Source: Squalus acanthias
Taxonomy: Eukaryota
DNA: 64,000 nucleotides
Assembly (NCBI GenBank): GCA_030390025.1
Contig: CM059441.1
Span: 2,480,001-2,544,000, forward strand
Reading direction: 5' to 3'
A model generated the notes under the pieces. It did no database searches and was not told the DNA's origin. It saw only the letters and a list, made by a program, of their open reading frames with translations. The first letter of the stretch is position 1; each line of letters starts with the position of its first letter. Position numbers and translations under genes: made by a program. Below are positions 2,891-60,142 of the stretch, piece after piece.

Positions 2891-3546
2891 GACTTGAAAT
2901 TGTAACATACTTTAACCCAATTATCTCTGGAGAAATATTATAAAGTAACAGCTACATTATTAATCAGAGGCAATCTGTCTAAGTAACACCAAACTCTCCT
3001 TCCCAATAGAAAATTCAGCTCACGGCACACTACATAATCCAAATGATGCATTCGGTCTCCATTAACTCTTATCTGATTAATTGGTCTCAATTGCGAGCTC
3101 ACATGCAGGTACATGTGGCATTTTGCTTGAAGCTCAGCAAAAATGAATAACAATGTGCAAGGTAGTCCAAGCTCCACTGTACATGCCGTGTAGCATTTCA
3201 GGCTTTTATTTGGATGAGCTATGCTTTAAAAAAAAAAAATTGCTACTTCAATTTTGCGATATCAGCTTGTGCAAATGATTTTTCCTGTAAACTTGCCCCT
3301 CTGAGCCAAATGTTCTCTGGTAGTTGCAATGTTATGCATTTAATAGTATTAATTGCTAATGTTCTCACTCAAAACAAATCTTCTTCTGTGGCAACTGTAC
3401 GGAGGATATATCTTGCAATGTTAAACCTAATGGTTCTTGAGTGTACAGAGAGACCTGCAGAATAAGCACTGAAGCAGCAAAAGGTAAGCCGGGACTTTTC
3501 TTAAGTTTGTGCACAGCTAGCAGTGGGAGACAGTAACATCTGATTT

Positions 3547-3740
3547 AACAACAGAAAACGCTGGAAAAACTCAGCAGGCCAGGCAGCATCCGTGGAGAGG
3601 GAAACAGAGCTAACGTTTCAGCTCGAAGACCTTTCGTCAGAACTGGAAAAAAGCAGGAAATGAAATAGATTTAAAGCAAGTATAATGCTGGGAAAAGGGG
3701 GAGGGGATGAAAGAACAAAAGGCAAGGTCAGTGATTGACT
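3547..3740 (-). mobile_element. Penelope-like family A, 3' terminal fragment
   Basis: Closely similar to 28183-28360 (aacaacagaaaacgctggaaaaactcagcaggccaggc...), the end of the RT/GIY-YIG element. Confidence 0.85.
3608..3644 (-). ncRNA. Minimal type I hammerhead ribozyme motif (PLE family A)
   Basis: Minus RNA: AGUU-CUGACGA-A-AGGUC UUC GAGCU-GAAA-CG-UU-AGCU; core intact, one mismatch in stem II, palindromic AACGUU in place of stem III. Confidence 0.75.
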
Positions 3741-7042: not shown

Positions 7043-8776
7043 GGGGGAATTTTTTGGGGGGTCAGAGGGTGCATTTGCTGGTGGGTTGGCTGGGAAAAAA
7101 ATGTTTTTGACAGCGGGTAGGGAACCCGCTGTCAATCCACCTCCACACTAGTCTCCCAGATATCGGGTCTGCCATTGCTGAACAGACACAACACCAAGCG
7201 GCGGGCGAGGCAATTTAGATTATTAATAGCTTGCTAACAGGCACTTAAAAACTATTTTAAGCTTACCTATAGATTTTTATAGTTTGCCAACAGCTTTCCC
7301 ACTGCTCAGGGATCATGTCAGGTAAGCAGGTCGGGTGTTGTGTCACCATGGGATGATTTCTAAACTTGACAGCTGCAAATGTACTATAAAAGCTCCCATC
7401 TCACAGCTGTTCACTTTCCAAGGTTAGAAGCTGTTGCTTACTGCAGTTGGAAGACAGATTGAGCTTTATGCAGCTTGCAAGTGTTTGGAGCAAACTCTCA
7501 TTGGAACAACCTCTCTCACCATTGACAGATCACTTCTGTCATCTCAACCTCACCTGCCATCTATTCCATTAGCATCGGTGCCCTTGAAACTATCTCACCT
7601 TGGTCCTCAGAATCCCACCGCGATCAGCCCCAACACCAGCAGCACCAGGCACACCAGCAGCACCAACAACTACACCAAACTTCTCCGCAATCAGCTGGTG
7701 CTGCACAGGACACAGGGCATCAGCACCCAACCACATTGCTGCCCGGGACCATGGCCAGATATACTTCACTTGACGCTGTATACCCTGGCTGCCACAAGAT
7801 GCACCAGGTTGGCACCACCCCACACCAACAACATAAAGCATCCCTACAATGCCCGAGCCATTCCTTTCACACTCATCGCCATTGCAGAGGGTACCGTTAT
7901 GTCTCACCATTCACTGCAACTCACTAAGCCATTTCCAAAGGTGCACACAAATCTGTCCAAGAACACAAAGTGTCAAAAATAAAGATTTCAATGTTTGACA
8001 GCACATTAACAGAAACTTCACATGAACATTGGCTAAAACACACAAGTGCCTATCCTTGTGTGTTGTTAGTTGGTATGATTAGACTAGGATGAGGGTGAGT
8101 GTGAGAGGTGGCTACTGAAATGGGGAGGGATGGGTGGAGGTGCAAGGTAAGTTGGTGTGAGTAAGGATGTGCAGGAGTAGGGTAGGGAAGGCAGAATGAT
8201 GGGGATGTTATGAATGGCACAGCAGGATGAGGTTGAGTGTGGCTTTGCAGTAACGTTTCGTGATCTACTGAGATCATTGAAAGATTTGCGCCACTGCAGC
8301 CTGGTCCTCCTGATGACATCCCTGCTTGTGCCCTCCTGTGCAATGTGCAACCAGGCTGTGTTGGTCTCCTGGGGACGTGTCTTCTGTCCATTGGAAGGGA
8401 AGAGAACCTCCCTGTGTGCTGTGACTCCCTTCATAAGCATATGGAGGGAGTCATGGGAGAGCCTGGGTGCAGCTGTGCACCTCTGTGCAGTGATTGTCAG
8501 TGTTTGCAGCACCTCAATGCTGTAGAACCCTTACAGCACAACTGTCAAAATCAATTTGCGCATGATCCCTTTAAGGAAACCGGCTGATGACGCGTCATCA
8601 AGTGACGTCATCAGACCCACTTCCTTCAGTTGGCTGGGAAACACGCTGGGTGGGGCTTAACAAGCCCAATCAATGTAAGATCACTCTACAGAGTGGGCTG
8701 GAGCCAGCGGCAGGGTTGCACCCCGCCACCGACCCCAGCCGCACCAGACCCGCCTAGGTAGGCGAAACTGCAGCCC
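7043..8776 (-). mobile_element. Non-autonomous PIF/Harbinger element carrying a Myb/SANT exon
   Basis: GGG-starting imperfect TIRs, AAG flanks at 7040-7042 and 8777-8779; homologous to 41647-42605 and 11466-12455. Confidence 0.75.
8250..8490 (-). pseudogene. Myb/SANT-like DNA-binding domain of Harbinger ORF
   Basis: APRLSHDSLHMLMKGVTAHREVLFP...AWLHIAQE...RRTRLQWRKSFNDLSRS. Confidence 0.7.
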
Positions 8777-11465: not shown

Positions 11466-12172
11466 AGGGGCATTTTGCGTGGGTCAGCGGGCGCAATCGG
11501 TGGTGGGTCGGGTGGAATTAAAAAAGCCGCCTCCAAGCTAGTCTCCCAGATGTCGGGTCTGTCATCGCTGAACAGACCCGACACCAAGCGGCGGGGGAGG
11601 CAACTTAGATCATTAGAGAGATTGTTAAGAGGCACTTAAATAGTATTTTAAGTTTACCTTTCAATTTTACATGTTCCCCCATGGCTTCCCCACTGCTCGA
11701 GGATCACGTCAGCTCAGCATGTCGTGAGTGGATTCAGCACTGAATTATCTGATTACCTGACAGCTGCAAAAGTTGTATAAAAGCTCCCATCTCACAGCTG
11801 TTCACTTTCCAAGCTCAGAAACTGTTGCTTACTGCATTTGGAAGACAGATTGAGCTTTATGCAGCTTGCAAGTGTTTGGAGCCAACTCTCTATCCAGTGA
11901 CACCTCATTGGAACAATCTCTCTCAGCTGTTTATTTTTCCACAGCGGGTCGGGACCCCGCTGTAAACCCGCCGCCACGTGCCTTTCCCAAATGTCGGACC
12001 AGTCATCGCTGAGCAGACTCGACACGCAGCGCCAGGGGAGGCATTTCAGGTCATTATGACCTTGTTAACAAAGGATTAAGAAGAACTTGAGATGACAGAA
12101 GCAATCTGTCAATGGTCAGAGATGTGAGAAGTCGCACAACACCAGGTTATAGTCCAACAGCTTTATTTGAAA

Positions 12173-12209
12173 TCACAAGCTTTCGGAGCGCTGCTCCTTC
12201 GTCAGGTGA
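12173..12209 (-). ncRNA. Minimal hammerhead ribozyme motif (PLE family B)
   Basis: UCAC-CUGACGA-A-GGAGC AGC GCUCC-GAAA-GC-UU-GUGA. Confidence 0.8.
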
Positions 12210-12312
12210 AGTGAAGAGATGCATATAGGCATAGCATATATAGTCAGAGAACACTGCCAGATGATTACAGTTAATCTTTCTAACTGCCCTATATGCATCT
12301 CTTCACTTCACT

Positions 12313-12349
12313 TCACCTGACGAAGGTGCAGCGCTCCGAAAGCTTGTGA
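12313..12349 (+). ncRNA. Minimal hammerhead ribozyme motif, opposite polarity
   Basis: UCAC-CUGACGA-A-GGUGC AGC GCUCC-GAAA-GC-UU-GUGA, one stem II mismatch. Confidence 0.75.
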
Positions 12350-13620
12350 TTTCAAATAAAGCTGTTGGACTATATCCTGGTGTTGTGCGACTTCTCACAT
12401 TTGTCCACCCCAGTCCAACACCGGCATCTCTGCATCATGGTCAGAGAGGTTGACCACTGGAATTTGGGCATTCTGTTTGGGTACATATTTTCCTCATAGT
12501 CTCCAATTTAAGCAACACTTGGTGTATAAATGGCTTTTACTGCCTTTTATTTAATAGTGATATAAATTCTGTTATATGAAAATGTTGCTCCCATTCTATA
12601 GTATTTTCTGAAATAGGTATAAACACTTTAAATTAAATAATGATCCATATTTCCACATAATCGTTACCTGCATATGGTTCTCTTTTCTTCATATCATCCT
12701 CTTCAAGTAATACCAAAGCAATTGTTGTCCCAAAGAATTGCAATGAATTTTATTGCTAGCAAAATGTATTGCTGCTTCAGTTTTTTTTTAATATGTTTTG
12801 TGCTCATCAAGATGAGGGATCCTAGTGCTGAAGAATTGGGCACTTTCTGTTTCAGGGCCTGCACTCTAACATCGGATATGGCACACTTTGGGCTGGATTT
12901 TGCCAATGGGGAGCTTTTGGAGGCGGGACTCCCACTTGTCGGGTTTTAGTCCCGCCACCATCGACTTCTGGCCAACCCACACTATTTTCCCTTGATTGAC
13001 CTTGTTAAGCCCGCCCGGGCATAGCAGGCCAATTAAGGGGAAGCCGGTTACAGAGAACGTCAACGTATGATGTTTCATCTGTCAAAAATTTTTGACAGAT
13101 GAATTGTCATCGTTTGACAGCTCTGTGAAGCTGTCAAACACTGTCATTCTCTGTAGTTTGATGAGTTCTTGTATTCAAGACCTCATCAAACCTCTTTCTT
13201 TAGCAGAAATTAGATGGTTGTTGCATTGGAGAATGCGAGACTCTTCGCATCCCCAACGATTGAAGCCTGCAGGAAGAAACAAAGGTAAGTAAACTTTTTC
13301 TAACACTTTTCACTCACCTCATATACTCACCTCTCCACACTTGCACCCATCACTTACCTTCACAGCGCTCTTTTCGATCCCTCTCACCCCCGCAGACCCA
13401 CTGCTCGCCTCGGTGACCCTGGCGGGGTTTGCAGCCTTCGGGAAGCCCGCACTTGTGTGGGTAAAACGGGGATGATCCTCTTATCTGCCTGTTAACTACC
13501 TGTTAACAGGCAGTTAAGTGGCTGTAATCCCCTTCCCGCCTCCAAGAGATGGGACCCGGCGCGGGTTGGCTACCCGCCTCCTGGGAAGATGGCACGGAGG
13601 CGGGTTGGGGGCGGGATGGG

Positions 13621-16155
13621 CCTGGTATTGTGCAACGAGATAGGATTAATTAATGACCTCATAGTGAAGGCGCCCCTAGGTAGCAGCGATCATAATATGA
13701 TTGAATTTTACATTCAGTTTGAGAGAGAGAGAAGAGTGGGTCCAAGACTAGTATTTTAAACTTAAATAAGGGCAATTATGAGGGCATGAAAGCAGAGCTA
13801 GCTAAAGTGAACTGGCAAATTAGGTTAAGGGATAGGTCAATAGAGTTGCAGTGGCAGACATTTAAGGGGATATTTCAGAATACACAGAATATATACATTC
13901 CAACAAGAAAGAAAAATTCCAAGGGGAGGACCCACCATCCGTGGTTAACTAAAAAAGTTAAATATAGTATTAAACTTAAAGAAAAAGCATATAATTGCGC
14001 AAAGATGGGTGGTAGGTCAGAAGATTGGACAGAATATAAAAAACAGCAAAGAATGACTAAAAGAATAATAAGGAGAGAAAAATTAGAGTACGAGAGAAAG
14101 CTAGCTAGAAATATAAAAAAAGATAGTGGGCCAAAAATTCGGCACTTGCCAGGTGCAAGGCCTCCTGAAGTGTCGGTTTCCTGCATGCACTGCGCATGCG
14201 CGGGAAACCGGAACTTCCGGTCTCGTGAAGGGAGGGGTTGAGAGGTGAACCGCGTGCGCGGGAGAGGCTGCGCGCACGCAGCTAACTTAGGTTTTTTTCA
14301 GGTTTCTCCGGGAAGGTAAGTATTGAAGAAGCTGCGCTTTTAAAAAGGAGGCGCAAGACCCGTTTTTAACAAGGTAAGTGGTTAATTAATTACAATTAAA
14401 AAAAATTTCAACAGGTTTATCTTTTTTAGATACTTTAAAGAAAGGTAAGTTTATTTTTAGCACTGTTAAAAAGTATTTTAATTTTTTCAAAAATTTAAAT
14501 TTTTGTTTAAAGTAGTTAATTTATTTAACTTATAGTTATTTTAAAAATGTGATGTTTAAAAAAAAAATATTTGAAGTTTAGGTGTTGTTTTGGGGCCGAT
14601 TTCAATTCATAGATTTGACAGGTCTTCCTTTCAAATCTATAAATGAAAGATGGTCTGCTGCCATTGGCTCTCCATGGCCCATGTGATCCCAGGGGACGCA
14701 TTGCACTAACTACGCCCCTGGGATACACAAGCACTGCGCGCCGGCAGCTGCAGGAGGCCCAGGAGCTGAAGTCCCCGTGGGCCCAGAGGTCAACGGCAGG
14801 CGCGGTAGGTAGGTGCGTGCGGGATCCTTGCACCCGTGGGAAGCCAGGGAGCCGAATTTCTGGGCCATTAAGAGTTTCTATAGATATTTAAAAAAGAAAA
14901 GAGTTAACAAAGTTGGTCCTATAAAAAGTGAGTCTGGGGAATTAATAATGGAAAATAAGGAGAATACAGTTGAATTGAACAGGGATTTTGCATCGGTCTT
15001 CACTATAGAGGATACAAGTAACATCCCAGAAATAGCTGTAAATCAGGAAATGGAAGGGAGGGAGGAACTCAAGAAAATTATAATCACCAGGGAAGTGGTA
15101 CTGAGCAAATTGTTGGAGCTGCGGGCTGACAAGTCCTCGGGTCCTGATGGACTTCATCCTAGGGTCTTAAAAGAAGTGGCCAGTGAGATAGTTGATGCGT
15201 TGGTTTTAATTTTCCAAAATTCCCTCGATTCGGGGAAGGTTCCATTAGATTGGAAAATAGTGACTGTAACTCCTTTATTCAAAAAGGGAGGGAGTCAGAA
15301 AGCAGGAAACTACAGGCCAGTTAGCTTAACATCTGTCATAGGGAAGATGTTAGAAGTTATTATTAAACACGTTATAGCAGGGCACTTGGAAAAGTTCAAA
15401 GTAATCAGGCAGAGTCAACATGGTTTTGTGCAAGGGAAATCATGTTTAACCAATTTATTGGAGTTCTTTGAGGAAGTAACATGTGCTGTGGATAAAGGGG
15501 AACCAATGGATGTACTGTACTTGGATTTCCAGAAGGCATTTGATAAGGTGCCACATCAAAGGTTATTGCGGAAAATAAAAGCTCATGGTGTAGGGGGTAA
15601 CATATTGGCATGGATAGAAGATTGGCGAGCTAACAGAAAACAGAGAGTAGGCATAAATGGGTCATTTCTGATTGGCAAGATGTAACGAGTGGTGTGCCAC
15701 AGGAATCAGTGCTGGAGCCTCAACTTTTTACAATTTATATAAATGACTTGGATGAAGGGACCAAAGGTATGGTTGCTAAATTTGCTGATGACACAAAGAT
15801 AGGTAGGAAAGTAAATTGTGAAGAGGGCATAAGGAGGCTACAAAGGGATATAGGTAGGTTAAGTGAGTGGGCAAAGATCTGGCAAATGGAGTATAATGTG
15901 GGAAAATGTGAAGTTGTCCATTTTGGCAGGAAGAATAAAAAAGAAGCATATTATCTAAATGGTGAGAGATTGCAGAGCTCTGAGATGCAGAGGGATCTGG
16001 GTGTCCTAGTGCATGAATTGCAAAAGGTTACTATGCAGGTACAACAAGTAATTAGGAAAGCTAATAGAATGTTATTGTTTCTTGCGAGGGGAATTGAATA
16101 CAAAAGTAGGGAGGTTATGCTTCAGTTATACAGGGCATTGGTGAGACCACATCTG
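13621..16155 (+). mobile_element. CR1 LINE ORF2 fragment (end of endonuclease plus RT), truncated at both ends
   Basis: LGSSDH, GPDGLHPRVLKE, NYRPVSLTS, DFQKAFDKVPH, KFADDTK; frameshifted; stops at LVRPHL. Confidence 0.95.
14128..14866 (+). mobile_element. Harbinger-type MITE inserted in CR1
   Basis: TIRs GGGCCAAAAATTCGGC and GCCGAATTTCTGGGCC (14/16); 3-bp flanks AGT/ATT; removal restores gatagtaagag as seen near 57008. Confidence 0.85.
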
Positions 16156-17850
16156 TTTGTAGATTCTGCCATTTTCCCAGCAGTCCCGCCTCCAAACCCG
16201 CCTCCCCAGGGCTGGCAAGATCGCGCCCATCGATAGAGTGAAGCGCCCTCCATTCTGCCCTAACCTCAGGAGCACACCTGTGCTTGCTATTGCACTAATA
16301 TGACTTCTTTCCCTTTGCTACTCCAACCATACTGTGGCCTGTCCAGGAGAGATGTCATATAATGGCATTCTTTGTGTGCAATGTCTACTTAGAAAGAAAT
16401 TGAAACTGCTTAAACTCAAGTCACATAAGATCCTCAATGCCAGCAAATGGAGGAGATTTTCATCCCATCGGTTCAGTGCCGATTCAAACCCTGTTTCATA
16501 AGTTAAAGGCTAGTATCTGACCCACTGCATCACCCTGTATATATTTTATTCTTCCTTCATATTTTTTCACATGACTTCCTGTTTCATCTCACAGGCTCCC
16601 ATCTCCATTTCACAGCCTTCTAATGAGGATAGTGGTGTTTGAATTCTTGGACCTAAGAGCTGATCGAGGTTAATTAGTTGTGTAAATCTTTTATTGATTT
16701 GGCAAGCTCATGGAATTTATTATTGATAGTTAAGTTTTTTTTTTCTCCAGTCTTTTTTTTTTAAAGGGTTGAGCTATCTCTTCATTCATGCCTGACCTTT
16801 CACTTCTAATTTTCTGCGACATGTTCGGTGGCAATGCAATCCCGTGAGGTCTGTTTTTGTTGTTTTCCATAATTTTTGCTGTGATTTGGAGTGCCTATCT
16901 CTGGTAACAAAGCATCCTGTCCTTCTGTTGTTTAAGAGCTTCATCTGCCAAACCTAAAGGATGTTGGGGGATTAAACGCAAGTGTCACAGAGTTCAATAG
17001 ATTCACATCTATATCCGCGTGACTCCTGCTTTATTATTGCTTTTGTACTATTTCCTCTTGGAAAATGTCCTTTACTCTCAGATCAATTGAGTTGCATTAA
17101 TGCAGACAGCGCACTGTTTAAAAAATGTCACATCACACTCAGTGTTGGCGTTCCACTATTCACAGAACTGATGAACCAGTTCACGAACTGTAACTCTAAG
17201 ATTGAACTGGTGCTGCACAAAGCAATTCTACACTTGTACAGTGGTAGAATCCTGTAATCCATCTCTAAATAACCATAACCTTAGAAGCAGAACACAGCAA
17301 GCCTTGCTGACCTAACAAAACCTATTTCTATTGCTTACAGCTTCAGCATTTCCTCTTCCAGAGATTTCTCTGTCTTTGTCATTTTCCGTCTGAAATTGAA
17401 AATTATCAAAGCAATATTCTATGGGCTTGTTCTCTCTGCATTGTTAAGTAAGGATGAAATTCATTCCTATCTCCAAACTTCGTTGAATTAGACCGATTCA
17501 GATTGAATTATTTTTTCCCAAGCTAGCTTTGCGGATGTATATTTTGATAGATTGTATTTGAAGCTGGTTATAAGAACACAAGGCGCAATTAAGAAATCTG
17601 ACTCTAAGCTTGGAATTCAGAGATATGAAAATGGGATTTTTGATATTCTAATGTAAAATTCAGACTTTAATGACGTGCACAAGCTGAACAGGATGTACCA
17701 TTACTGTGCCGCTTGGTGATTTGAGGAAGGAAAAAAACATAATGAATACTAAAAATGAATTCCTTTCAATTTTTTGAATAGATTTTAATATAGATGTATA
17801 ATGCATTAGAACATATGACAATTCTGCGTATGCATAACTGTAAATATATA

Positions 17851-19430: not shown

Positions 19431-20840
19431 TACATAAGAACTTAAGAAATAGGAGCAGGAGTAGGCCATTTGGCCCCTTGAGCCTGCTCCGCCATTCAAT
19501 AAAATAATGGTTGATCTTCTACCTCAACTCCACTTTCTGCACTATCCCAATATCCCTTGATTCCCTTAATATTCAAAAATCTATCGATCTCCGTCTTAAA
19601 TATACTCAACGACTGAGCCTCCACAGCCCTCTGGGGTAGAGAATTCCAAAGATTCACCACCCTCTGAGTGAAGAAATTTCTCCTCATCTCAGTCCTAAAT
19701 GGCCGACCCCTTATTCTGAGACTGTGACCCCTGGTTCTAGACTCCCCAGCCAGGGGAAACATCCTCCCTGCATCTACCCTGTCAAGCCCTGTAAGAATTT
19801 TGTATGTTTCAATGAGATCATCTCTCATTCTTCTAAACTCTAGAGAATATAGGCTTAGTTTACTCAATTTCTCCTCATAGGACCATCCCCCCATCCCAGG
19901 AATCAGTCTGGTGAACCTTCGTTGCACTCCCTCTATGGCAAGGTAAGGAGACCAAAACTGTACACAATTCTCCAGGTGTGGTCTCACCAGGGCCCTATAT
20001 AATTGCAGCAAGACGTCTTTACTCTTATACTCAAATCCTTTTGTAATAAAGGCAACATACCATTTGCTTTCCTAATTGCTTGCTGTACCTGCATGTTAAT
20101 TTTCAGTGATTCGTGTACAAGGACACCCAGGTCCCTCTGAATGCCAACATTTCCCAATCTCTCACCATTTAAAAAATACTCTACTTTTCTATTTTTCCTA
20201 CCAAAGTGGATAACTTCACATTTCTCCACATTATATTCCATTTGCCATGTTCTTACCCACGCACTTAGCCTGTCTATATCCCCTTGAAGCCTCCTTGCAT
20301 CCTCCTCACAACTTACATTCCAACCCAGCTTTGTATCATCAGCAAACTTGGATATATTACATTTGGTCCCCTCATCCAAATCATTGATATAGATTGTGAA
20401 TAGTTGAAGCCCAAGCACTGATCTTTGCGGTACCCCACTAGTTACAGCCTGCCAACCTGAAAATGACCCGTTTATTCCTACTCTCTTTTTTCTGTCTGTT
20501 AACCAATCCTCAATCCATGCTAGTATATTACCCCCAATCCCATGAGCACTAATTTTGTTTAATAACCTATTATCGAATGCCTTCTGAAAATCCAAATACA
20601 CCACATCCACTGGTTCCCCCTTATCTACTCTGCTAGTTACAACCTCAAAAAACTCTAACAGATTCGTCAAACACAACTTCCCTTTCATAAATCCGTGTTG
20701 ACTCTGCCCAATCCTATTATTATTTTCTAAGTGCCCTGTTACCATGGCTTTAATAATAAACTCTAGCATTTTCCCTACTACTGATGTCAGGCTAACTGGT
20801 CTGTAGTTCACCGTTTCTCTCTCCCTCCTTTCTTAAATAG
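19431..20840 (-). mobile_element. 5'-truncated CR1 LINE with 3' UTR and short-repeat tail
   Basis: ORFs 19984-20811 and 19496-20011 (KFADDTK, RRMRDDLIETYK, FFTQRVVNLWNSLP). Confidence 0.95.
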
Positions 20841-27833: not shown

Positions 27834-28179
27834 ACAGTATCAACAGTATCTCACCAACAACACACATAAGGGATTGTACTCATAAAGCTGCCGTATGGTG
27901 TAAAGACCTCCCCAAAAATCTTCCAGGCTACGATGGATAAGATTTTGCAAGGATAAGATTTTGCAAGGAGTTCCAAATTGCTTATGCAATCAAGACGATG
28001 TGCTGATCGTAACAAGCGGCGAGGAAGAAAATCTAGAAGTGCTAGATATAGTGCTTCAAAGGTTGAATGCCCACAACATCAAATTGAAATGGAGCAAATG
28101 TGCTTTTGTGCATTGAGTTTGTGTACCTTGGTCTGAAAGTTGATTCAAATAGCTTGCAACCAGTGAAAGAAAAGGTTGA

Positions 28180-29929
28180 AATAACAACAGAAAACGCTGG
28201 AAAAACTCAGCAGGCCAGGCAACATCCGTGGAGAGAGAAAGAGAGTTAACGTTTCAGGTCGAAACCCTTCGTCGGAACTGAGAGAGCAAGAAATAAACAG
28301 ATAAAAATGCAAGGGGGAGGCTGGGGGGAGGAATAAAAGAACAAAAGGGATGGTCTTTAGTGAGTAGAGACATTGAGAGATGCTCAAGGCAAGACGAGAT
28401 GGTAATGGGACAGGTTGAGAAACAAAAGGTAAGGTGTGAAATGCTAGCAGAATCAGAGACAGCTGCCGTGGGGGGAGAGAGAGAAAAAAAGGAAAAAGGC
28501 ACGGACCAAAAGAGTGGATAAAATGTATACGTATGTGGTAGGGGCCGGGGTTATGATCTGAAATTGTTGAACTCGATATTGAGTCCGGAAGGCTGTAAAG
28601 TGCCTAAACGAAAGATGAGGTGCTGTTCCTCGAGCTTACGCTGAGCTTCCGTGGAACAATGAAGAGGCCGAGGACGGTGAGGTCTGAGTGAGCGTGGAGG
28701 GGTGAATTAAAATGACAAGCGACCGGAAGCTCGGGGTCACCCTTCCAGACTAAACGGAGGTGTTCCGCAAAGCGGTCACCCAATCTGCGCTTGGTCTCCC
28801 CAATGTAGAGAAGACCACATCGTGAGCAGCGAATACAGTATACTAGATTGCAAGAAGTACAAGTAAATCGCTGTTTCACCTGGAAGGGGTGTTTTGGGCC
28901 CTGGAGAGTGGGAAGGGGGGATGTATAAGGGCAGGTGTTGCATCTCCTGCGCTTGCACGGGAAGGTGCCAGGGTGAAGGGGAAGGGGTGCTGGGGGTGAT
29001 AGAGGAGTGGACTAGGGTGTCTCGGAGGGAGCGGTCCCTACGGAATGCTGAAAGGGGAGGTGAGGGGAAGATGTGTTTGGTGGTGAGATCACGTTGCAGG
29101 TGGCGGAAATGGTGGAGGATGATCCGTTGAATGTGGAGGCTGGTGGGGTGAAAGGTGAGGACAAGGGGAACTCTATCGTGGTTCCGGGAGGGAGGGGCCG
29201 GGGTGAGGGCAGAAGTGCGGGAGATGGAACGGACACGGTCGAGGGCCGTGTTGATCACGGTAGTGGGGAATCCTCGGTTGAGGAAAAAGGAAGACATGTC
29301 GGAAGCACTGGTATGGAAGGTGGCATCGTCGGAGCAGATACGGCGGAGACGGAGAAACTGGGAGAAGGGAATAGAGTCCTTACAGGAGGCGGGGTGGGAG
29401 GAAGTGTAGTCCAGGTAGCTGTGGGAGTCAGTGGGCTTGTAGTGAATGTTGGTCAATAACCTATCCCCAGAGATGGAGACGGAGAAGTCGAGGAAGGGGA
29501 GGGAAGAGTCGGAGATGGACCATGTGAAGGTGAGGGAAGGGTGGAAATTGGAGGCAAAGTGAATGAAATTGTCTAGTTCAGGGCGAGAGCAGGAAACGGC
29601 ACCGATACAGTCGTCAATGTATCGGAAAAAGAGGTGAGGGAGGGGACCCGAGTAGGACTGGAACAAAGAGTGTTCCACATATCCCACGAAAAGGCAGGCA
29701 TAGCTAGGACCCATGCGGGTACCCATAGCAACACCTTTGATTTGGAGGAAATGAGTGGAGTCAAAGGAGAAGTTGTTCAATGTGAGAACAAGTTCAGCCA
29801 GGCGGAGGAGGGTGGCGGTGGATGGGGACTGGTTGGGCCTCTGTTCAAGGAAGAAGCGGAGCGCCCTCAGGCCATCCTGGTGGGGGATGGAGGTGTAGAG
29901 GGATTGTACGTCCATGGTGAAAAGGAGGC
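28180..29929 (-). mobile_element. Penelope-like element family A (Neptune-like), 5'-truncated, nested in Gypsy pol
   Basis: RT DVQSLYTSIP, GVAMGT, RYIDD; GIY-YIG NLVYCIRC..LYIGET in a shifted frame; 12-bp TSD AGAAAAGGTTGA at 28168-28179 and 29930-29941. Confidence 0.95.
28244..28279 (-). ncRNA. Hammerhead motif with core substitution (CCGACGA)
   Basis: AGUU-CCGACGA-A-GGGUUUCGACCU-GAAA-CG-UU-AACU. Confidence 0.65.
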
Positions 29930-31982
29930 AGAAAAGGTTGATCCTGTCATCAATGCTCCAAAGCTACAGAATGTGTCCGAGTTAAGATCTTTCCTTGGAA
30001 TGGTCCAGTACTATGCACGTTTCTTACCTGAGTTAGCGACCATGTTACCTCGATTGCATGAGCTCCTCAAGAAGGATGTCCAGTGGAAGTAGACAAAAGC
30101 GCAACAGGAAATTTATGACGCTTGTAAGAGAAGTCTCTCTAGTGATGCTCTACATGTGCACTACTACACAGAGCGTGAACTTAAGTTAGCGTGTGATGCT
30201 TCTAGCTACAGTGTGGGAGCTGTCATAAGCCATGTAATGGATGATGGCAAGAGAAACCAATAGCGTTCGCATTGCGAACCCTCACAAAGAGCAAAAGAAA
30301 CTACGTGTAAATTGAAAAGGAAGCACTCGCCATAATGTTTGGAATCAAGAAATTCCAACAGTTCCTGATCAGCAGAAATTTTACCCTGATAACCGATTAC
30401 AAACCGCTCCTAGCAATATTGGGGCCCAAATCTGCCATCCCTGCAATGGCCGCATCGAGAATGTAATGTTGGGCAGTGTTGTTGTCACAATATGACTAAA
30501 CGATTGAATATCGTACTTCAAAGCAAAACGCAATCACAGATGTCTTGTCCAGGTTGCCACATGAGGACTCGTGTTGGGAGTGAAGGGGCAATTTTCACGC
30601 TAGGTGCAGTTGACAAAAACTGCACCTGAGATAGCAGATGAGACTCAAAAGGACTCAGTACTGAAAAGAGTGTATGAAAACACTTTGAATGTATGGACGA
30701 TCAGTGTATAGACACAGAATTGAAACCATTCCATAACCGTCATACTGAATTGTCCTGTGAGCAAGGTTGTATCAAGTGGGGAAACAGAGTGGTGGTACCT
30801 TCTTCTTTGAGAGATAGAATTCTGGCTGAACTTCATACTGAACATCCAGGGATCGTCAGTATGAAATCAATTGCAAGAAGGTTTTTTTCCTGGCCTGGAT
30901 TGGACAGTGATCGTGAATCACTTGTCAACAAATGCAACGTTTGCCAAAATTGCAGAAACAAACCACCTAAAACTCCACCACAGCCCTGATCATGGCCAAG
31001 TAGACCTTTTCAGAGAGTACATGAAGACTTCTGTGAGAAAGCAAATGATTATTTCCTGGTACTTGTAGATAATCACTCAAAGTGGATTGAAGTGAAACAC
31101 ATGGGTTCAAATACTGCAACTGAACATACCAATGATGAGCTGAGGTCTATCTTTGCATGTCATGACTTGTTCCTGACAATGACCCTTAGTTCTGTTCTGC
31201 TCTATTCCAAGAATTCATGAAACGGAATGGTATCATCAAGCTTCAAATGGAGCAGCTGAAAGGTCAGTTAAAATAGTGAAAGAAGCTCTCAAAAAGCAAG
31301 TGTTGGAGGGTTGTTCAGGACTCAGCATGAAGCAACATTTGGATAATGTCTTGCTGAAGTACAGAACTACTCCGCACACTACAACTGGACATACCCCAGC
31401 AAAACTCTTGATGAAGAGGAGATTGAGAACACAATTGAGTCTGGTTCAACCGAATTTTGCCTCATGAGTTGAACAGAAACAGTTGAGTCAGAAATGTTAT
31501 GACAGCAATCAGAAAGAACGCAGTTTCAAACAAAACAAGTGTGTTCGTGTTCTCAGTCCCCCAGGCAAGTCGAGTTCACACAAATGAAACTCTGGTGATA
31601 GATCTGACAGCTTTGCTGAGTGCTCAGACTGCTGCCATCATGGCTCTGAGGACTAGCATCTCAAGTTTTCAATCCATGAAGGAGATCATGGATAGGAGTG
31701 TGGAGAGCATGAATGTGGGCTTCCAGAGCATCACTGCACTCCTTCACTCTATTCTCATGCAAAGCAGAGGGAGTGTGAAGGCGCAGCCCCATGAGAGTGG
31801 CTTGAGCTCCATGGAGAGGCTGCCTCACACAGGATTCTTCAGCGACCCTGGCAGCTGCCATTGAAAGGTACATTTAATTAATGAAAAAAAAAGTTAATGT
31901 GGAGCCAGGAGCAGCAGGAGTGGCGATCACCTAACCCCCCTACCCCATAACCCATTCAATTCCACCCTCCTGGGATTTACCC

Positions 31983-32155: not shown

Positions 32156-32247
32156 TGGAAATGTGAGCTGATAACGGTGTGGCCAGGTCAACGGGGCATC
32201 TGGAGCCTCATGAACATCGGGTTTATCTCCTCAACCAATGACATTTA

Positions 32248-32435
32248 TGTGAGAAGTCGCACAACACCAGGTTATAGTCCAACAGCTTAATTTGAAATCA
32301 CAAGCTTTCGGAGCGCTGCTCCTTCGTCAGGCTCCGAAAGCTTGTGATTTCAAATAAAGCTGTTGGACTATAACCTGGTGTTGTGCGACTTCTCACATTT
32401 GTGCACCCCAGTCCAACACCGGCATCGCCACATCG
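32248..32435. mobile_element. Second palindromic Penelope family B mini-element
   Basis: 68-bp arms 32247-32314 and 32331-32398, same tail as the 12.1-kb copy, TSD ATGA(C/A)ATTTA. Confidence 0.9.
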
Positions 32436-32445
32436 ATGAAATTTA

Positions 32446-46020: not shown

Positions 46021-47033
46021 ACTGTTTGTATGCTGTCTCGGATTGAAGTCTGCCTTGAAGATTACAGATCTTAACGTTTTTAAGTATGTCCTTGACACAT
46101 TAGAGTTAAGAGAAGTAATTAGTTGTGATACATTCTTTGATTTAAAAATAATCCTCTGTTGAAAGATCTGAGCTTGGAAGCTTAACTAGCTTTTGGGTTT
46201 TGTATGTGCGACTTGTTCTATTGTCTCACTCCTAACTATATTTGTTGACCTTAAATCATTCAGTCTAAGATGGCAGAAAAAAATGGCATTGAAAAAATAT
46301 TACATCTACAAAAGTGGTCGATATTATTTATTGTTGGAATGTATGTAAATACTAAAGCCTCAGATTCATAGACTGAGCCAGTTTGTTGTTTCAAAATAAT
46401 CAGTCATTCGACACAGCAGGAGCCCATCATAACAGATTATTCCTCTCTTCCAAAACACCCTCCAAAGGTGTCAGTTAAACCCTTATCTTCTGTTGTGTGC
46501 AAGGCAATACACAGAAGAGCAAAGAGTGGAAACAAAAAATGCAGTTTTATTGGACTAACAGATTTAACAGAAGTGGTATAATCTGTCCTCAAAACTAAAA
46601 TACAAATCAAATTGTAGAAATAGAGGATATTATTATTCTACATTATTACTTCCAGTTTTCAGTGAAATACAAATGGTTACTTCTATCTTACTAAGAACTG
46701 ATTGTTTTCATGTTCATTTTAAGTTAAAGCCAGTATCTTACTGAGGCTGCCAGTGGGCCACATTTTTCTGGCATTAGCTTGAATGACAAGTGAGAATGAA
46801 AATCCTGTCCATGATGTTGGTTAAACTACAGGAAATGAACTGCAACCAATTCTATTATCTGTAGAAAGGCTTCAAAGAATTATAGCTTAGAAAATACAGT
46901 GGGCAATACTAGCAGATGTATTAACCCATTCAAAATAAATGGGTCCTGCTACTATCAACAACAGTCATGTCTGGCCTCATATTATTAAGAGGTCGCACAA
47001 CACCAGGTTATAGTCCAACAGTTTTATTTGAAA

Positions 47034-47076
47034 TCACAAGCTTTCGGAGCTATCGATTTGCTCCTTCCTCAGGTGA
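47034..47076 (-). ncRNA. Minimal hammerhead ribozyme motif at the PLE 3' end
   Basis: UCAC-CUGAGGA-A-GGAGC AAAUCGAUA GCUCC-GAAA-GC-UU-GUGA. Confidence 0.8.
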
Positions 47077-47409
47077 AGTAAATTAGATACAGAATCTCCA
47101 AAGCATATATAGATGGAAAACAAAGAATGTGTACTTTACAATTGCAGACCAATAAATTAAATCATCCTGACTATCTGCCGAGGTGTGATAAAGTTAATTA
47201 AGTCAGCCAGGAAGGTACCACATCAAAGACATAGCAAGATACAACTGAGACAATGAGGTGTAGTCGCAGGGGTTCTAACGTGTCAAAAGCTGCCGTCTGT
47301 ATGTAAAACGAAAAGCTTTAACATTTTTTTACTTTTTTACTGGGAAAATTTTTACTTTTTTTACTGGGAATCACATCTGTGAACAAGCTAACGACGACTC
47401 GAGTCCGGA

Positions 47410-49152
47410 TCACGTCATGTATCGTGACATAAACCCAAGATCCCGATTGAGACCGTCTTCATGAGTGCGGAACTTGGCTATCAGTTTCTGCTCGATGATT
47501 TTGCGTTGTCGTGTGTTTCTAAGGTTGCCTTGGAGAACGCTTACCCGCAGATCCGAGGCTGAATGTCCTTGACTGCTGAAGTGTTCCCCGACTGGGAGGT
47601 AACAATCCTGCCTGGCGATTGTTGCGCGGTGCTCGTTCATACGTTGTCTCAGTGTCTGCATGGTCTCGCCGATGTACCATGCCGCGGTGCATTCTTTCCT
47701 GCAACGTATGAGGTAGACAACGTTGGCCGAGTCACATGAGTATGTACCATGTACCTGGTGGGTAGTGTCCTCACGTGTGATGGTGGTATCTGTGTTGATG
47801 ATCTGGCATGTCTTGCAGAGTTTGCCATGGCAGGGTTGTGTGGTGTCGTGGTCGCTGTTATCCTGAAAGCTGGGTAATTTGCTGCGAACGATGGTACTTC
47901 TGAGGTTAGGCGGCTGTTTGAAGGCAAGTAGTGGAGGCGTGGGGATGGCCTTAGCGAGGTGTTTGTCGTCATCGATGACATGTTGAAGGCTGCAAAGAAC
48001 ATGGCGTAGTTTCTCCGCTCCGGGGAAGTACTGGACGACGTAGGGTACCCTGTTGGTTGTGTCCCGTGTTTGCCTTCTGAGGAGGTCTATGCGATTTTTC
48101 GCTGTGGCCCGTCGGAACTGTCGATCGATGAGTCGAGCGTCATATCCCGTTCTTACGAGGGCGTTTTTCAGCGTCCGTAGGTGTCCATCGCGTTCCTCCT
48201 CGTCTGAGCAGATCCTGTGTATTCGCAGGGCTTGTCCATAGGGGATGGCTTCTTTAACATGGTTAGGGTGGAAGCTGGAGAAGTGGAGCATCGTGAGGTT
48301 GTCCGTGAGCTTGCGGTAGAGTGAAGTGCTGAGGTGTCCGTCTTTGATGGAGATTCGTGTGTCCAGGAATGAGACTGATTCTGAGGAGTAGTCCATGGTG
48401 AGTTTGATGGTGGGATGGAACATGTTTATGTTATCGTGTAGTCTTTTCAGTGATCCTTCGCCATGGGTCCAAAGGAAGAAAATGTCGTCGATGTATCTGG
48501 TATACAGCGTTGGCTGGAGGTCTTGTGCAGCGAAGAAGTCTTGCTCGAACTTGTGCATGAAGATGTTGGCGTATTGGGGTGCGAATTTGGTCCCCATGGC
48601 TGTTCCGTGTGTTTGGGTAAAAAAATGGTTGTCGAAGGTGAAGACATTGTGGTCAAGGATGAAGCGGATGAGTTGTAGGATGGCGTCTGGAGATTGGCTG
48701 TTGTTGATGTTGAGTACTGAGGCTGTTGCAGCGATGCCGTCATCGTGGGGGATACTGGTGTAGAGTGCCGATACGTCCATCGTGGCAAGGAGTGTTCCTG
48801 GTTCAACTGGTCCATGGGTGCTGAGTTTCTGTAAGAAGTCTGTAGTGTCGCGACAGAAGCTGGGGGTTCCCTGTACGATGGGTTTCAGAATGCCCTCGAC
48901 GTATCCAGAGAGGTTCTCACACAGGGTTCCATTGCCTGATACGATAGGACGTCCGGGTGTGTTGGCTTTGTGTATCTTTGGGAGGCAGTAGAAGTCTCCC
49001 ACGCGGGGATTACGTGGGATGAGAGCGCATAGGATGTTTTGAAGGTCTGGATCGAAGGTCTTGATCAGTCTATTGAGTTGGCGGGTGTGTTCTTTGGTCG
49101 GATCTGCGGGTAGCTGTCTGTAGTGTTCCTGGTTGTCCAGTTGTCGGTATGC
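47410..49152 (-). CDS. PLE reverse transcriptase / GIY-YIG endonuclease, uninterrupted but lacking its N-terminus
   Basis: YCLPKIHK, GRPIVS, DVSALYTSIP, GTAMGT, RYIDD, CHGKLCKTC linker, NVVYLIRC..WYIGET; frame stays open upstream of the listed start (AYRQLDNQEHY..). Confidence 0.9.
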   Translation of the reverse strand, partial: AYRQLDNQEHYRQLPADPTKEHTRQLNRLIKTFDPDLQNILCALIPRNPRVGDFYCLPKIHKANTPGRPIVSGNGTLCENLSGYVEGILKPIVQGTPSFCRDTTDFLQKLSTHGPVEPGTLLATMDVSALYTSIPHDDGIAATASVLNINNSQSPDAILQLIRFILDHNVFTFDNHFFTQTHGTAMGTKFAPQYANIFMHKFEQDFFAAQDLQPTLYTRYIDDIFFLWTHGEGSLKRLHDNINMFHPTIKLTMDYSSESVSFLDTRISIKDGHLSTSLYRKLTDNLTMLHFSSFHPNHVKEAIPYGQALRIHRICSDEEERDGHLRTLKNALVRTGYDARLIDRQFRRATAKNRIDLLRRQTRDTTNRVPYVVQYFPGAEKLRHVLCSLQHVIDDDKHLAKAIPTPPLLAFKQPPNLRSTIVRSKLPSFQDNSDHDTTQPCHGKLCKTCQIINTDTTITREDTTHQVHGTYSCDSANVVYLIRCRKECTAAWYIGETMQTLRQRMNEHRATIARQDCYLPVGEHFSSQGHSASDLRVSVLQGNLRNTRQRKIIEQKLIAKFRTHEDGLNRDLGFMSRYMT

Positions 49153-49489
49153 TTCATATTATTAAACATCGCTGTATTGTAGGAAATATATTTTTCCATA
49201 GGTGCTGAATTACTCTCAAAGTACAAGCAGTTCATTATATGGCAGTTAACAATTTTACCCTTTTTTAGTGCATTCACAGGAACACCCAACTTTACTCTGT
49301 ATACATTCTGGAAGCTCCAGTGCATTAGGCTGTGTGAAATATGCAGAACTGGGTGTCCATTTGGAAAGAATACTGGTCAAATAGCTGAACAGCCACTTAA
49401 CCAGTATGAATTGTGCACAGCGTAAATCTAGTTGTGAAAGGCACAATCTTTGTGAGAAATGGAAGGCGAATAACAAAGGCATAAATCAA

Positions 49490-49785: not shown

Positions 49786-51410
49786 CAACAACAACAACAA
49801 CAACTTGTATTTATATAGCGCCTTTAACATAGTAAAATGTCCCAAGGTGCTGTACAGGAGTATTTTAAGACAAAAAATTTGACACCGATCCACATAAGGA
49901 TAAATTAGGGCAGATGACCAAAAGCTTGGTCAAGGAGGTAGGTTTTAAGGAGCATCTTAAAGGAGGAAAGAGAGGTAGCGAGGTGGAGAGGTTTAGACAG
50001 GGAATTCCAGAGCTTAGGGCCTAGGCAACAGAAGGCACAGCCACCAATGGTTGAGCGATTATGTTCAGGGATGCTCAAGAGGCCAGAATTAGAGAAGCGC
50101 AGATATTTCGGGGGGTTGTGGGGCTGAAGGAGATTACAGAGATAGGAAGGGGCGAGGCAATAGAGGGATTTGAAAACAAGGATGAGAATTTTGAAATCAA
50201 GGCGCTGCTTAACCGGGAGCCAATGTAGGTCAGCGAGCACAGGGGTGATGGGTGAACGGGACTTGGTGCGGATTAGGACACGGGCAGCCGAGTTTTGGAT
50301 GACCTCAAGTTTATGTAGGGTGGAATGTGGGAGGCCAGCCAGGAGTGCGTTGGAATAGTGAAGTCGCGAGGTATCAAAGGCATGGATGAAGGTTTCAGCA
50401 GCGGATGAGCTGAGGCAAGGGCGGAGACGGGGCGATGTTACGGAGGTGGAAGTAGGTGGTCTTAGTTATGCTGCGGATATGTGGTCGGAAGCTCATTTCA
50501 GCGTCAAATATGACACCAAGGTTGCGAACAGTGTGGTTCAGCCTCAGACAGATGTTAGGGAAAGGGATGGAGTCAGTGGCTGGGAACGGAGTTTGTGGCG
50601 GGGACCGAAAAGAATGGCTTCGGTCTTCCCAATATTTAATTGGAGAAAATTTTTGCTCATCCAGAACTGTATGTTGGACAAGCAGTCTGACAATTTAGAC
50701 ACCATGGAGGGGTCGAGAGAAAAGATAGTGAGGTAGAGCTGGGTGTCGTCAGCGTACATGCGGAAACTGACACTGTGTTTTCAGATGATGTCACCAAGGG
50801 GCAACATGTAGATGAGAAATAGGAGGGGGCCAAGGATAAATCCCTGGGGGACACCAGAGGTAACGATGCGGGAGCGGAAAGAAAAGCCATTGCAGGTGAT
50901 TCTCTGGTTACGATTAGATAGAGAAGAATGGAACCAGGCGAGTGCAGTCCCACCCAGCTGGACGACGGTGGAGAGGCGTTGGAGAAGGATGGAATGGTCA
51001 ACTGTGTCAAAGGCTGCAGACAAGTCAAGAAGGACAAGGAGGGATAGTTTACCTTTGTCACAGTCACAAAGGATGTCATTTATGACTTTGATGAGAGCCA
51101 TTTCGGTACTGTGACAAGGGTGGAAACCTGATTGGAGGGATTCAAACATGGAATTGCGAGAAAGATGGGCACGGATTTGGGAGGCAACAACACATTCAAG
51201 GGGGGAACCTTAGAGGAAGTTTGGCCCGGTGGGCTAGGGAAAGGAAGGGAAGTGGCAGAGGCAGCTGAACGGATTGTCTCAATCTTAGAGAAGAAGAAGT
51301 CCATGAGCTTCTCACACTTGCTGTTGGAGGTGAGGGTGATGGAGACAGGGGAGAGGGGTTTAAGAAGACGGTTAGCAGTAGAGAATAGGAGCAACATAAA
51401 TGCAGAGGGA
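49786..51410 (-). mobile_element. L2 LINE, 5'-truncated with internal deletions, (TTG)n tail
   Basis: LQSGF..HSTE, LDLSAAFDTVDH, GVPQG, YADDTQLY, LHWLPVKQRLDFK. Confidence 0.9.
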
Positions 51411-56649: not shown

Positions 56650-58797
56650 CGCTTAAACAAAGGCAATTATAATGGCATGAGGGCAGAACTGGCTAAAGTG
56701 GACTGGAAAAACAAATTAAAGGGTAAGAAAGTTGAAATGCAGTGGCGGACATTTCAGGAGATATTTCATAACTCTCAACAAAAATATATTTCAGTGAGGA
56801 AGAAAGATTTTAAGAGACGGGAGCAGCATCTGTGGCTAAGTAAGGAAGTAAAGGATGGTATCAAATTGAAATCGAAGGCATACAATGTTGCCAAGATTGG
56901 TGGGAGACCAGAGGATTGGGAATTTTTTTAAACCAGCAAAGGATGACTCAAATAATAAAGAGAGAGAGATGAATTATGAGAGTAAGCTGGCAAGAAACAT
57001 TAAAACAGATAGTAAGAGCTTCTACAGGTATATAAAAAGGAAGAGCGTAGCTAAAGTAAACGTTGGTCCCTTAGAGGATGAGACTGGGGAATTAATAATG
57101 GGGAACGGGGAAATGGCAGAAACTCTGAACAAATATTTTGCATCTGTCTTCACTGTAGAAGACACTAACAACATCCCAATAATGGATAATCAAGGGGCCA
57201 CAGGGAGTGGGGAACTAAAGACAATCACTATCACTAAGGAAATAGTACTCGGTAATATAATGGGACTAAAAGACGACAAGTCCCCTGGACCAGATGGCCT
57301 GCATCCCAGGGTCTTAAAAGAAGTGGCTGCAGAGATAGTGATGCATTGGTTGCAATATACCAAAGTTCCCTGGACTCTGGAGAGGTCCCAGCGGATTGGA
57401 AAACCGCTAATGTAACACCCCTATTTAAGAAAGGAGGGAGACAGAAAGCAGGAAACTATAGACCAGTTAGCCTAACATCTGTCGTTGGGAAAATGCTGGA
57501 GTCCTTCATTAAGGAAGCAGTAGCAGGGCATTTAGAAAAATATACTGCAGCCAAACAGAGTCAGCATGGTTTTAGGAAAGGGAAATCATGTGTAACAAAT
57601 TTGCTGGAGTTCTTTGAAGATGTAACAAGCAGGGTGGACAAGGGTGAGCCAGTGGATGTGGTGTATTTGGATTTCCAGAAGGCATTCGATAAGGTGCCAC
57701 ATAAAGGGTTACTGCATAAGATAAGAGCTCATGGAGTTGGGGGTAATATATTAGCATGGATAGAGGATTGGCTAACTAACAGAAAGCAGAGAGTCGGGAT
57801 AAATGGGTCTTTTTCCAGTTGGCAAGCAGTAACTAGTGGGGTGCCACAGGGATCGGAGCTGGGGCCCCAACTATTTACAATCTACATTAATGACTTGGAT
57901 GAAGGGATTGAGTGTAATGTAGCCAAGTTTGTGGATGATACAAAGATGGGTGGGAAAGCAAGTTGTGCAGAGGACTCAAAGAATCTGCAAAGGGATAAAG
58001 ACAGGCTAGGTGAGTGGGCAAACATTTGGCAGATGGAGTATAATGTGAGAAAGTGCGAGGTTATCTACTTTGGCAGGAAAATTAAAAAAGCAAACTATTA
58101 TTTAAATGGAGAGAGATTACAAAATGCTACCGTTCAGAGGGACCTGGGGGTTCTTGTGCTTGAAACACAAAAAGTTAGCATGCAGGTAAAGCAAGTAATC
58201 AAAAAGGCAAATGGAATGTTGGCCTTTATTGCAAGGGGGTTGGAGTATAAAAGCAGGGAAGTCCTGCTACAACTGTACAGGGTATTGGTGAGACCACACC
58301 TTGAGTACTGCGTACAGTTTTGGTCTCCTTATTTAAGGAAGGATATACTTGCATTGGAGGCAGTTGAGAGACGATTCACTTGGTTAATTCCAGAGATGAG
58401 GGGTTTGACTTATGAGGAAAGGTTGAGCAGGCTGGGCCTATAATCATTGGAATTTAGAAGAATGAGAGGTGATCTTATCGTACATGTAAGATACTGAGGG
58501 GGCTCGACAGGGTAGATGCAGAGAGGATGTTTCCCCTCATGGGGAAATCTAGAACTCGGGGACACAGTCTCAGAATAAAGAGTCGCCCTTTTAGAACTGA
58601 GATGAGGAGGAACTTCTTCTCTCAGAGGGTCGTAAATTTGTGAAATTCTCTGCCCCAGAGAGCTGTGGAGGCTGGGTCATTAAATACATTTAAAGTGGGG
58701 ATAGACAAATTTTTGCAAGATAAGGGAGTGAAGGGTTATGGGGAGCGGGCTGGGAAGTGGCTTTGAGCCCAAGATCAGCCATGATCTTATTGAATGG
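56650..58797 (+). mobile_element. CR1 LINE (ORF2), interrupted in its 3' UTR by the ERV
   Basis: Frameshifted ORF2 pieces 56635-58443; UTR stops at ..tgaatgg where the LTR starts. Confidence 0.95.
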
Positions 58798-59444: not shown

Positions 59445-60142
59445 CACGGACAAAGGACACCACAAATTTCTAGTGACAAATCCTGAATGGCCACAAGTGA
59501 TGTTTTATCACATAAAAAGGATTTCTCATTAGATACTAAATTGGTGCTGTCTGTTTCTTCCGACAGGGACACAGCGATCTGTAGGACTCGAGTTTTGGAT
59601 TTGAGTTGAATCCTGTAACTTTTGCTTCTTTTATTTCTAATGTTAAGAGGAGGGGGAGGATTTTGGTGGCTCAAGTTTCAAAACTATCGGGCAGAGGAGG
59701 TAAAAAAAAAAAAGTCGGCAGGGTTGTGTCCCGGACTAAAAGGTACCAGGTTATGAGAAAGCGCTAAAAGATTAAAACTGCAGTATCAAGGGTGGGTCCC
59801 TTGAGCCGGAGAAAAGAGTCTCGCGGCAGAAAGGTTTAGATAAGAAACCTTCATATATAGAGTATAAGTTAAATGTTAAGGACCCAGTTTGTAGTGGCGA
59901 ACAACGCAAACTGGGAATTGACTATTTGTTTAGCTTAAAGTATAAGGTTAAATGTTTGATTACTTGATTTGTTTGCCTGTTTGGGTTTTTTTGCGTTACT
60001 TATCATTGTCTTTATTGTTGTTAATTCTTGTTATTGTTTGTCATTTGTGGAGCTCCGAAGGGTTAATAATAATCGTAAAGGGGTAAAGGGTGAAATTTGC
60101 AATTCCGAAGACGAGTGCCTAGTATAACTAAACTTTACTAAG

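Follow-up and report, generated by a model that had tools for sequence, protein, structure and literature searches.

A 314-bp palindrome with hammerhead core letters on both strands, very probably a truncated PLE insertion of a known kind

The window (the whole 64-kb stretch of DNA analysed here) contains, near 12 kb, a palindromic insert of 314 bp that is very probably a dead-on-arrival insertion of an endonuclease-positive (EN+) Penelope-like element (PLE), consisting of two 5′-truncated 3′ ends placed back to back. The palindrome is an ordinary one, a further example of a known by-product, and its centre is a copy-specific truncation point; the retroelement family is an abundant one, with very many truncated insertions besides this. 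That there are two hammerhead motifs follows from the length of the halves, each of which reaches past the motif common to all termini of the family. An earlier note on this DNA had offered such a by-product of truncated PLE insertion as one of two readings, and every test supports it (an ORF-bearing terminus, TSDs and variable junctions).

Anatomy of the insert and its relatives in the window

The insert occupies positions 12123-12436 and is framed by exact copies of the 11-bp TSD ATGGTCAGAGA on the plus strand, the left one at 12112-12122 and the right one at 12437-12447 (chance ~1e-5 for 49 placements); the last A of the left copy may also be the end base of the adjoining arm. The two arms run in opposite orientations, one of 108 bp at 12122-12229 and the other of 113 bp at 12288-12400, and they differ by two substitutions, both A>T on the plus arm and not A>G, and by a 5-bp duplication private to that arm. 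Between them lies an unpaired centre of 58 nt (12230-12287), and a tail is confined to the plus arm, where it covers 12401-12436, or 38 nt if counted to 12438, the end of the family contigs, its last two bases then being shared with the TSD. Sequence comparison bears out the anatomy first proposed (314 bp, inverted arms, asymmetric tail, 11-bp TSD) with one amendment: the 58-nt length of the spacer stands, and its neutrality does not, the centre being the upstream continuation of the tail-less minus arm. There are thus two halves. The first is a tail-less, 5′-truncated PLE 3′ end on the minus strand (12122-12294), comprising the arm 12122-12229 and its own upstream sequence 12230-12294, as judged from contig collinearity and from alignment with a PLE at 47 kb. 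The second is a tailed, 5′-truncated PLE 3′ end on the plus strand, recognised by homology and made up of the 113-bp arm and the tail of 36-38 nt (12401-12438), which is delimited by loose contig ends and is repeated at 32399-32434. The place of the loose ends also suggests that the two halves have in common a 7-nt overlap, CCTATAT, at the inversion junction (12288-12294).

An empty-site paralogue, placed near 7510-7545 in the earlier note, was confirmed at 7509-7547 on the minus strand, within a high-copy host repeat. It agrees with the left flank at 35 of 39 positions, has a single copy of the target (with one mismatch) and continues with the 5 bases found behind the right TSD. The form without the insert also occurs in contigs of two DNA runs of organism A, 51 in run X1, from which the window itself may come, and 22 in run X5. 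The host repeat that served as target (7134-7547, 11524-11930, 11965-12056 and 12083-12122) reaches a summed depth of 200,000-500,000; beside the insertion both of its orientations are found inside a 200-bp stretch, and past the right TSD the flank keeps to the repeat family over just 5 bases.

A second fold-back insertion of the same family is located at 32238-32445. The earlier note had pointed to this second instance on the strength of its outer ends, which are indeed those of the 12-kb insert, yet it has no whole hammerhead motif on either strand. Its arms, a tail-less one on the minus strand (32247-32331) and a tailed one on the plus strand (32331-32434, with the tail at 32399-32434), overlap by 1 nt, its centre is different, and its TSD is 10 bp long with one mismatch (32238-32247 and 32436-32445). 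The right-hand TSDs of both insertions start with ATG (12437-12440 and 32436-32438) and the adjoining tails end in CATC/CATCAT, a match hinting that the target primer pairs with the RNA over 2 bases at the tailed start. At the left ends a single base is shared.

The same terminus is found in a third, ORF-bearing insertion. This is a 5′-truncated, tail-less and non-inverted PLE of a sister subfamily at 46977-49165 on the minus strand, identified by its motifs, by Pfam and by an AT-rich TSD of 12 bp (46977-46988 and 49154-49165). Its frame (47410-49158, minus strand) is unbroken over 582 codons, with an RT, a CX4CxxC linker and a GIY-YIG domain, and is followed by a 338-bp 3′ region; its copy of the terminus (46988-47112) matches the palindrome arms over the terminal 95-117 nt at 83-85%. 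The RT was recognised by Pfam (RVT_1, E 2e-08) and by the motifs YIDD and GTAMG, and the GIY-YIG by the motif VVYLIRC...YIGET and by the domains of relatives, the local Pfam scan having scored the RT only. Among 1564 matches, the closest relatives of the protein are from sharks (91% to Heptranchias perlo), and then from turtle, tick and lancelet. The linker, CHGKLCKTC at residue 443, is of the CX2-5CxxC form found, among 120 proteins examined, in 55 of the 56 listed relatives with the EN-start motif, a form that marks Neptune/Nematis-type PLEs in the available part of PMC8557442; from its sequence, the driver PLE of the 12-kb insertion is probably Neptune-type.

Since the same terminus ends a frame with RT and GIY-YIG, the arms represent the 3′ terminal repeat of an EN+ PLE, with a shark-like host. 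The link of the 12-kb copy to RT and EN goes through the sister subfamily at 47 kb and not through an ORF of its own; homology between the two fades ~40 nt into the centre, and the 12-kb copy is therefore assigned to a sister subfamily. In a tblastn search of 120 relatives, no ORF start was located within the terminal DNA. The sole match to this DNA, P0044, was discarded, as it comes from a gene model that reads through the terminus in antisense. What would be expected of EN+ PLE insertions is otherwise present: the link to RT and GIY-YIG, 5′ truncation together with an inverted terminal copy, an optional tail of 36-38 nt and variable TSDs of 11, 10 and 12 bp. The three insertions in the window have fixed ends in common, differ in their centres, and have each their own TSD of 10-12 bp.

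A 14-17-nt motif is present in the sense orientation in the 3′ region of the 47-kb PLE (47174-47190) and in the antisense orientation in the 12-kb subfamily sequence behind 12294 (consensus of loose ends). It is too long to be put down to chance, so that an inversion may be fixed in the terminal repeat of one of the subfamilies.

The window holds further elements. A second PLE family (28150-29963 and 3515-3633, both on the minus strand) has an RT frame of 395 codons and a GIY-YIG frame of 135 codons in different frames; its hammerhead-like end is of a different kind, and neither copy passes the hammerhead descriptor used here. A gag-like frame of 553 codons with a zinc knuckle (Pfam zf-CCHC) at 60128-61789 on the plus strand is probably part of an LTR retroelement or endogenous retrovirus, and decayed LINE reverse transcriptase fragments, which we take to be of CR1/L2 type, are located at 13723-16236, 19496-20832, 56870-58443 and 49905-51209.

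Depth and joints in public contigs and reads

Depth was surveyed over 12040-12519 in public contigs and reads from four of 21 runs, with the small-share runs X18-X20 left out. Summed contig depth, which is not a copy number, is 0.4-7 million over the arms and 1.1-1.8 million over the centre in X1 and X5. The arm and spacer of the minus half are collinear in contigs and reads (summed depth ~1.1-1.2 million in X1), and long pieces pass from the left arm into the centre, from which it follows that the centre is the normal upstream sequence of the minus half. Family contigs of this half depart from the window behind 12294 (13 contigs in X1 and 22 in X5), and because the plus arm begins at 12288, the two halves would overlap by 7 nt at the inversion. 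Loose ends with unrelated flanks (agreement ~0.4) gather at 12125 and 12438, the two ends of the family, which are 38-41 nt apart in element coordinates; those at 12438 are represented by 36 contigs in X5, 8 in X10 and 3 reads in X21.

The junction presents a different picture. The bin just past it, 12296-12311, has a depth of 1016 in X1 and 138 in X5, against 14 and 21 for the unique right flank, and the junction bin amounts to at most 0.1% (X1) and at most 0.01% (X5) of the spacer depth, i.e. it is 10^3-10^4 times shallower. Contigs fitting both arms were assigned to one of them, so that the low depth over 12296-12327 is in part due to the private duplication of the plus arm; it nevertheless sets an upper bound on junction-crossing contigs. 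The joints were identified at 90% likeness, their shorter sides being 18-30 letters long. All of the 15 that are listed (of 126) have the left arm on one side and the right arm or the tail on the other, no two of them share a pair of positions, and none of the listed pieces spans the whole 12-kb unit. The idea that the central junction recurs within the family finds no support in this survey, given that 15 of 15 listed joints differ and that the centres at 12.3 and 32.3 kb differ as well. An apparent hot spot of joints at 12332-12333 was dismissed, since most of it seems to stem from the placement of variant stem II loops. Two joints, 12172>12404 and 12210>12403, lead directly from the antisense arm into the tail, which would leave a tailed half of only ~35 nt.

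These observations bear on the proposal that the insert belongs to a non-autonomous palindromic family (MITE- or retrozyme-like) whose units PLE enzymes copy whole, the junction being inherited. Fixed outer ends and TSDs would suit such a family, though two RT starts account for the fixed ends. The depth of the junction bin is above single-copy and several joints reach a depth of 100-940, so that a few junctions may be multi-copy; in addition, pLTRs alone can mobilise enclosed sequence in trans (PMC3846280, available part), and the opposite orientations of the 14-17-nt motif raise the prospect that an active lineage may once have inherited an inversion. Nonetheless, the junction bin is at most the small fraction of spacer depth given above, and neither the two centres in the window nor the 15 listed joints agree with one another. 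We consider a palindromic family very unlikely, and favor two truncated 3′ ends lying back to back.

The remaining runs contribute less. In run X10, putatively of RNA, depth is 0.2 in the junction bin and 0 in the right flank, as compared with 4,000-134,000 over the arms and spacer; the run was classed as RNA by guess, rare forms are lost from contigs, and contigs cannot show circles or ends. This depth speaks for transcripts or DNA of the family and not for the 12-kb unit. The raw-read run X21 is thin (15 reads of ~10 million) and agrees on the tail end and on the continuity of arm and spacer. Exact 26-nt terminus patterns gave 0 matches in metagenome contigs and 0 in viral contigs.

Hammerhead motifs and predicted RNA folds

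Minimal type I hammerheads were sought with our own descriptor, in which stems I and II are at least 4 bp each. There are two matches in the 64-kb window and none in 30 shuffled 64-kb sequences. The first is a whole minimal motif at 12173-12209 on the minus strand, in the minus arm of the 12-kb palindrome, with a 4-bp stem I, CUGACGA, an extra A, a 5-bp stem II and GAAAGCUU; its predicted cut is between 12177 and 12176, and in isolation it is predicted to fold as drawn. The second, at 47038-47072, belongs to the 47-kb PLE, whose motif (47034-47076) is also whole and has a longer stem II loop. Both have the core boxes, stems I and II, a palindromic 15.2-16.2 and an extra base after A9 that define minimal hammerheads. 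A complete core had been claimed for each arm of the 12-kb insert, and the letters are there on both strands (CUGACGA, GAAA, AGCU-U and the 4-bp stem I). The claim does not extend to a whole motif on the plus strand, where the one at 12313-12349 has an intact core but is mismatched (U-U) in stem II and is not accepted by the descriptor. At 32.2 kb the minus arm is without the 5′ strand of stem I and the plus arm without CUGANGA, so that just one of the four arms of the two palindromic loci has a whole minimal hammerhead, which argues against selection for two ribozymes. Searching Rfam gave no match to a hammerhead family at E<=1, and the ribozyme call therefore rests on motif, descriptor and context. 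MIR396 was rejected as an Rfam identity (27.4 bits against a gathering value of 80), since what matches is simply the long hairpin.

Both strands of the 12-kb unit are computed to fold as one long hairpin (-207 and -216 kcal/mol), and a read-through RNA is predicted to form a 108-bp hairpin in which the motif is buried. Forcing the hammerhead fold would cost a computed ~57 kcal/mol on either strand. The earlier note had suggested that arm pairing would compete with ribozyme folding and could act as a folding switch. The antisense arm, however, is transcribed ahead of the ribozyme motif on both strands, so that the motif would never be free of its inhibitor, and this order together with the computed cost lends support neither to a switch nor to a viroid-like replicon. 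There is also no second motif on the same strand of the unit with which a dimer could form.

A viroid- or retrozyme-like replicon, with a rod RNA, working hammerheads in both polarities, circles and a switch based on arm pairing, would be consistent with the core letters on both strands and with the rod-like folds, and dual-polarity RNAs of this type do exist. However, each strand has a single sense motif, and in the available part of the survey of Cervera and De la Pena (2014; PMC4209133) single minimal motifs gave no cleavage and dimers gave low cleavage. Moreover, there is no tandem repeat or same-strand pair to free a unit, there is no helix III, one of four arms has a whole motif, and no junction recurs among the 15 listed joints. 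The order of antisense arm and motif and the depth of 0.2 in X10, with the limits given for that run, point in the same direction. We regard such a replicon as extremely unlikely, and the self-propagating dual-polarity family that was the second reading in the earlier note is not upheld, given that the junction is not shared, the 32-kb copy has no whole motif, the plus motif is mismatched and the computed penalty is ~57 kcal/mol. A related possibility is that some back-to-back units, the 12-kb one included, are re-mobilised whole, or that the motifs of their rod RNA are opened and cut with the aid of a protein or through pairing with other family transcripts, in which case they would form a palindromic dual-polarity class of retrozymes. 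This is very unlikely, and we retain it because the junction depth is above single-copy and the inverted motif was seemingly inherited between subfamilies. Dual-strand hammerhead palindromes in DNA or RNA contigs of fish, sharks and reptiles can, we caution, mimic viroid-like replicons.

Insertion mechanism and comparison with known systems

For the preferred reading, in which two truncated 3′ ends of an EN+ PLE lie back to back, the following steps may be envisaged. The RT-GIY-YIG protein would cut both target strands with a stagger of 11 bp, and each target 3′ end would prime its own first-strand cDNA, the top one at the tail-less start and the bottom one at the tail end. Both cDNAs would stop early (at ~170 and ~150 nt), anneal via the 7-nt overlap and be filled in. 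We hold the two-primer step, drawn from two copies, to be moderately probable. Several features of the inserts are relevant. First, one half stops at the tail-less end of the family and the other at the tailed end, 36-38 nt further. Second, the bases added beside the TSD are antisense to the element on each strand, like first-strand cDNA. Third, it is the tail-less half that owns the unpaired centre in both palindromes of the window (58-65 nt at 12 kb and 17 nt at 32 kb), which disfavors fold-back of one tailed cDNA; fold-back of a tail-less cDNA is likewise disfavored because it cannot supply the tail. Short and clean back-to-back units preserve both priming ends together with the place where the halves meet; the location of the unpaired centre favors two separately primed cDNAs, a step left open by the in vitro PLE study.

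The palindrome might also have formed after insertion, through gene conversion or repair with an inverted neighbor, or by fold-back of one cDNA, and both the microhomology at the junction and the near identity of the arms could be taken in this sense. Yet one clean TSD surrounds the whole unit and is single in the empty site, each outer end is an RT-start end of the family, and the centre is owned by the tail-less half, whose cDNA cannot template the tail. These origins are exceedingly improbable, and insertion of two back-to-back 3′ ends remains the better account. It agrees in its two-cDNA form with the PLE of Anolis carolinensis known as PAc, a Poseidon, for which cutting and extension of both strands and two RT starts that bound the tail are reported in the available part of Frangieh et al. 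2024 (PMC11167929). PAc resembles the elements described here in its two fixed ends bounding a tail and in a hammerhead just upstream, and the AT-rich target is shared with the 47- and 32-kb copies; its hammerhead cleaves only with protein and is dispensable for insertion. There are also differences, again as far as the available text goes. In PAc the ORF begins within stem II; here no ORF start was identified in the terminal DNA, and the driver has a CX2-5CxxC linker, which is absent from Penelope/Poseidon.

A literature search, with most subscription papers and Repbase/Dfam outside its scope, found no paper on this shark family by name. The accessible parts of two papers describe insertions closely similar to the 12-kb one: an inverted 5′-truncated copy and a tail of 30-40 bp are typical of PLEs (PMC8557442, Craig et al. 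2021), and an inverted shorter pLTR may overlap a direct one, with a 15-bp overlap at the inversion, an optional tail of 31 bp and TSDs of 8-10 bp (PMC3846280, Arkhipova et al. 2013). With these units, of the Pen2a_Av/D. virilis type, the 12-kb insert shares an inverted truncated copy, a tail at one end, a short overlap, a TSD in the range of ~8-12 bp and microhomology, and it departs from them in that its main copy has no ORF, the unit is only 314 bp and the TSD is 11 bp.

The hammerhead motif has close counterparts too. Most minimal motifs are tied to truncated PLEs, in which dual copies are found 100-700 bp apart on opposite strands (PMC4209133, available part); sharks are not named there, and the supplements of this survey may name shark motifs. 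The 12-kb motif shares with minimal hammerheads of metazoan PLEs the 4-bp stem I, the extra base between 9 and 10.1, the G10.1-C11.1 pair, the palindromic 15.2-16.2 and the lack of a real helix III, and it differs from the Schistosoma motifs in having a stem II of 5 bp and not 7-8 bp.

Finally, animal non-LTR retrozymes are, like the 12-kb unit, non-coding, ~300 bp long, PLE-derived and equipped with a type I hammerhead, and the available portions of two accounts report them in one cartilaginous fish (PMC7229834, Cervera and De la Pena 2020; 10.64898/2026.07.22.740005, Li et al. 2026 preprint). The head-to-tail units with same-strand hammerheads that define retrozymes are not found at 12 kb. 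Retrozymes, as described in the accessible part of PMC7229834, are head-to-tail tandems with motifs on the same strand and give rise to circles, whereas the 12-kb unit is arranged head-to-head with one motif per strand.
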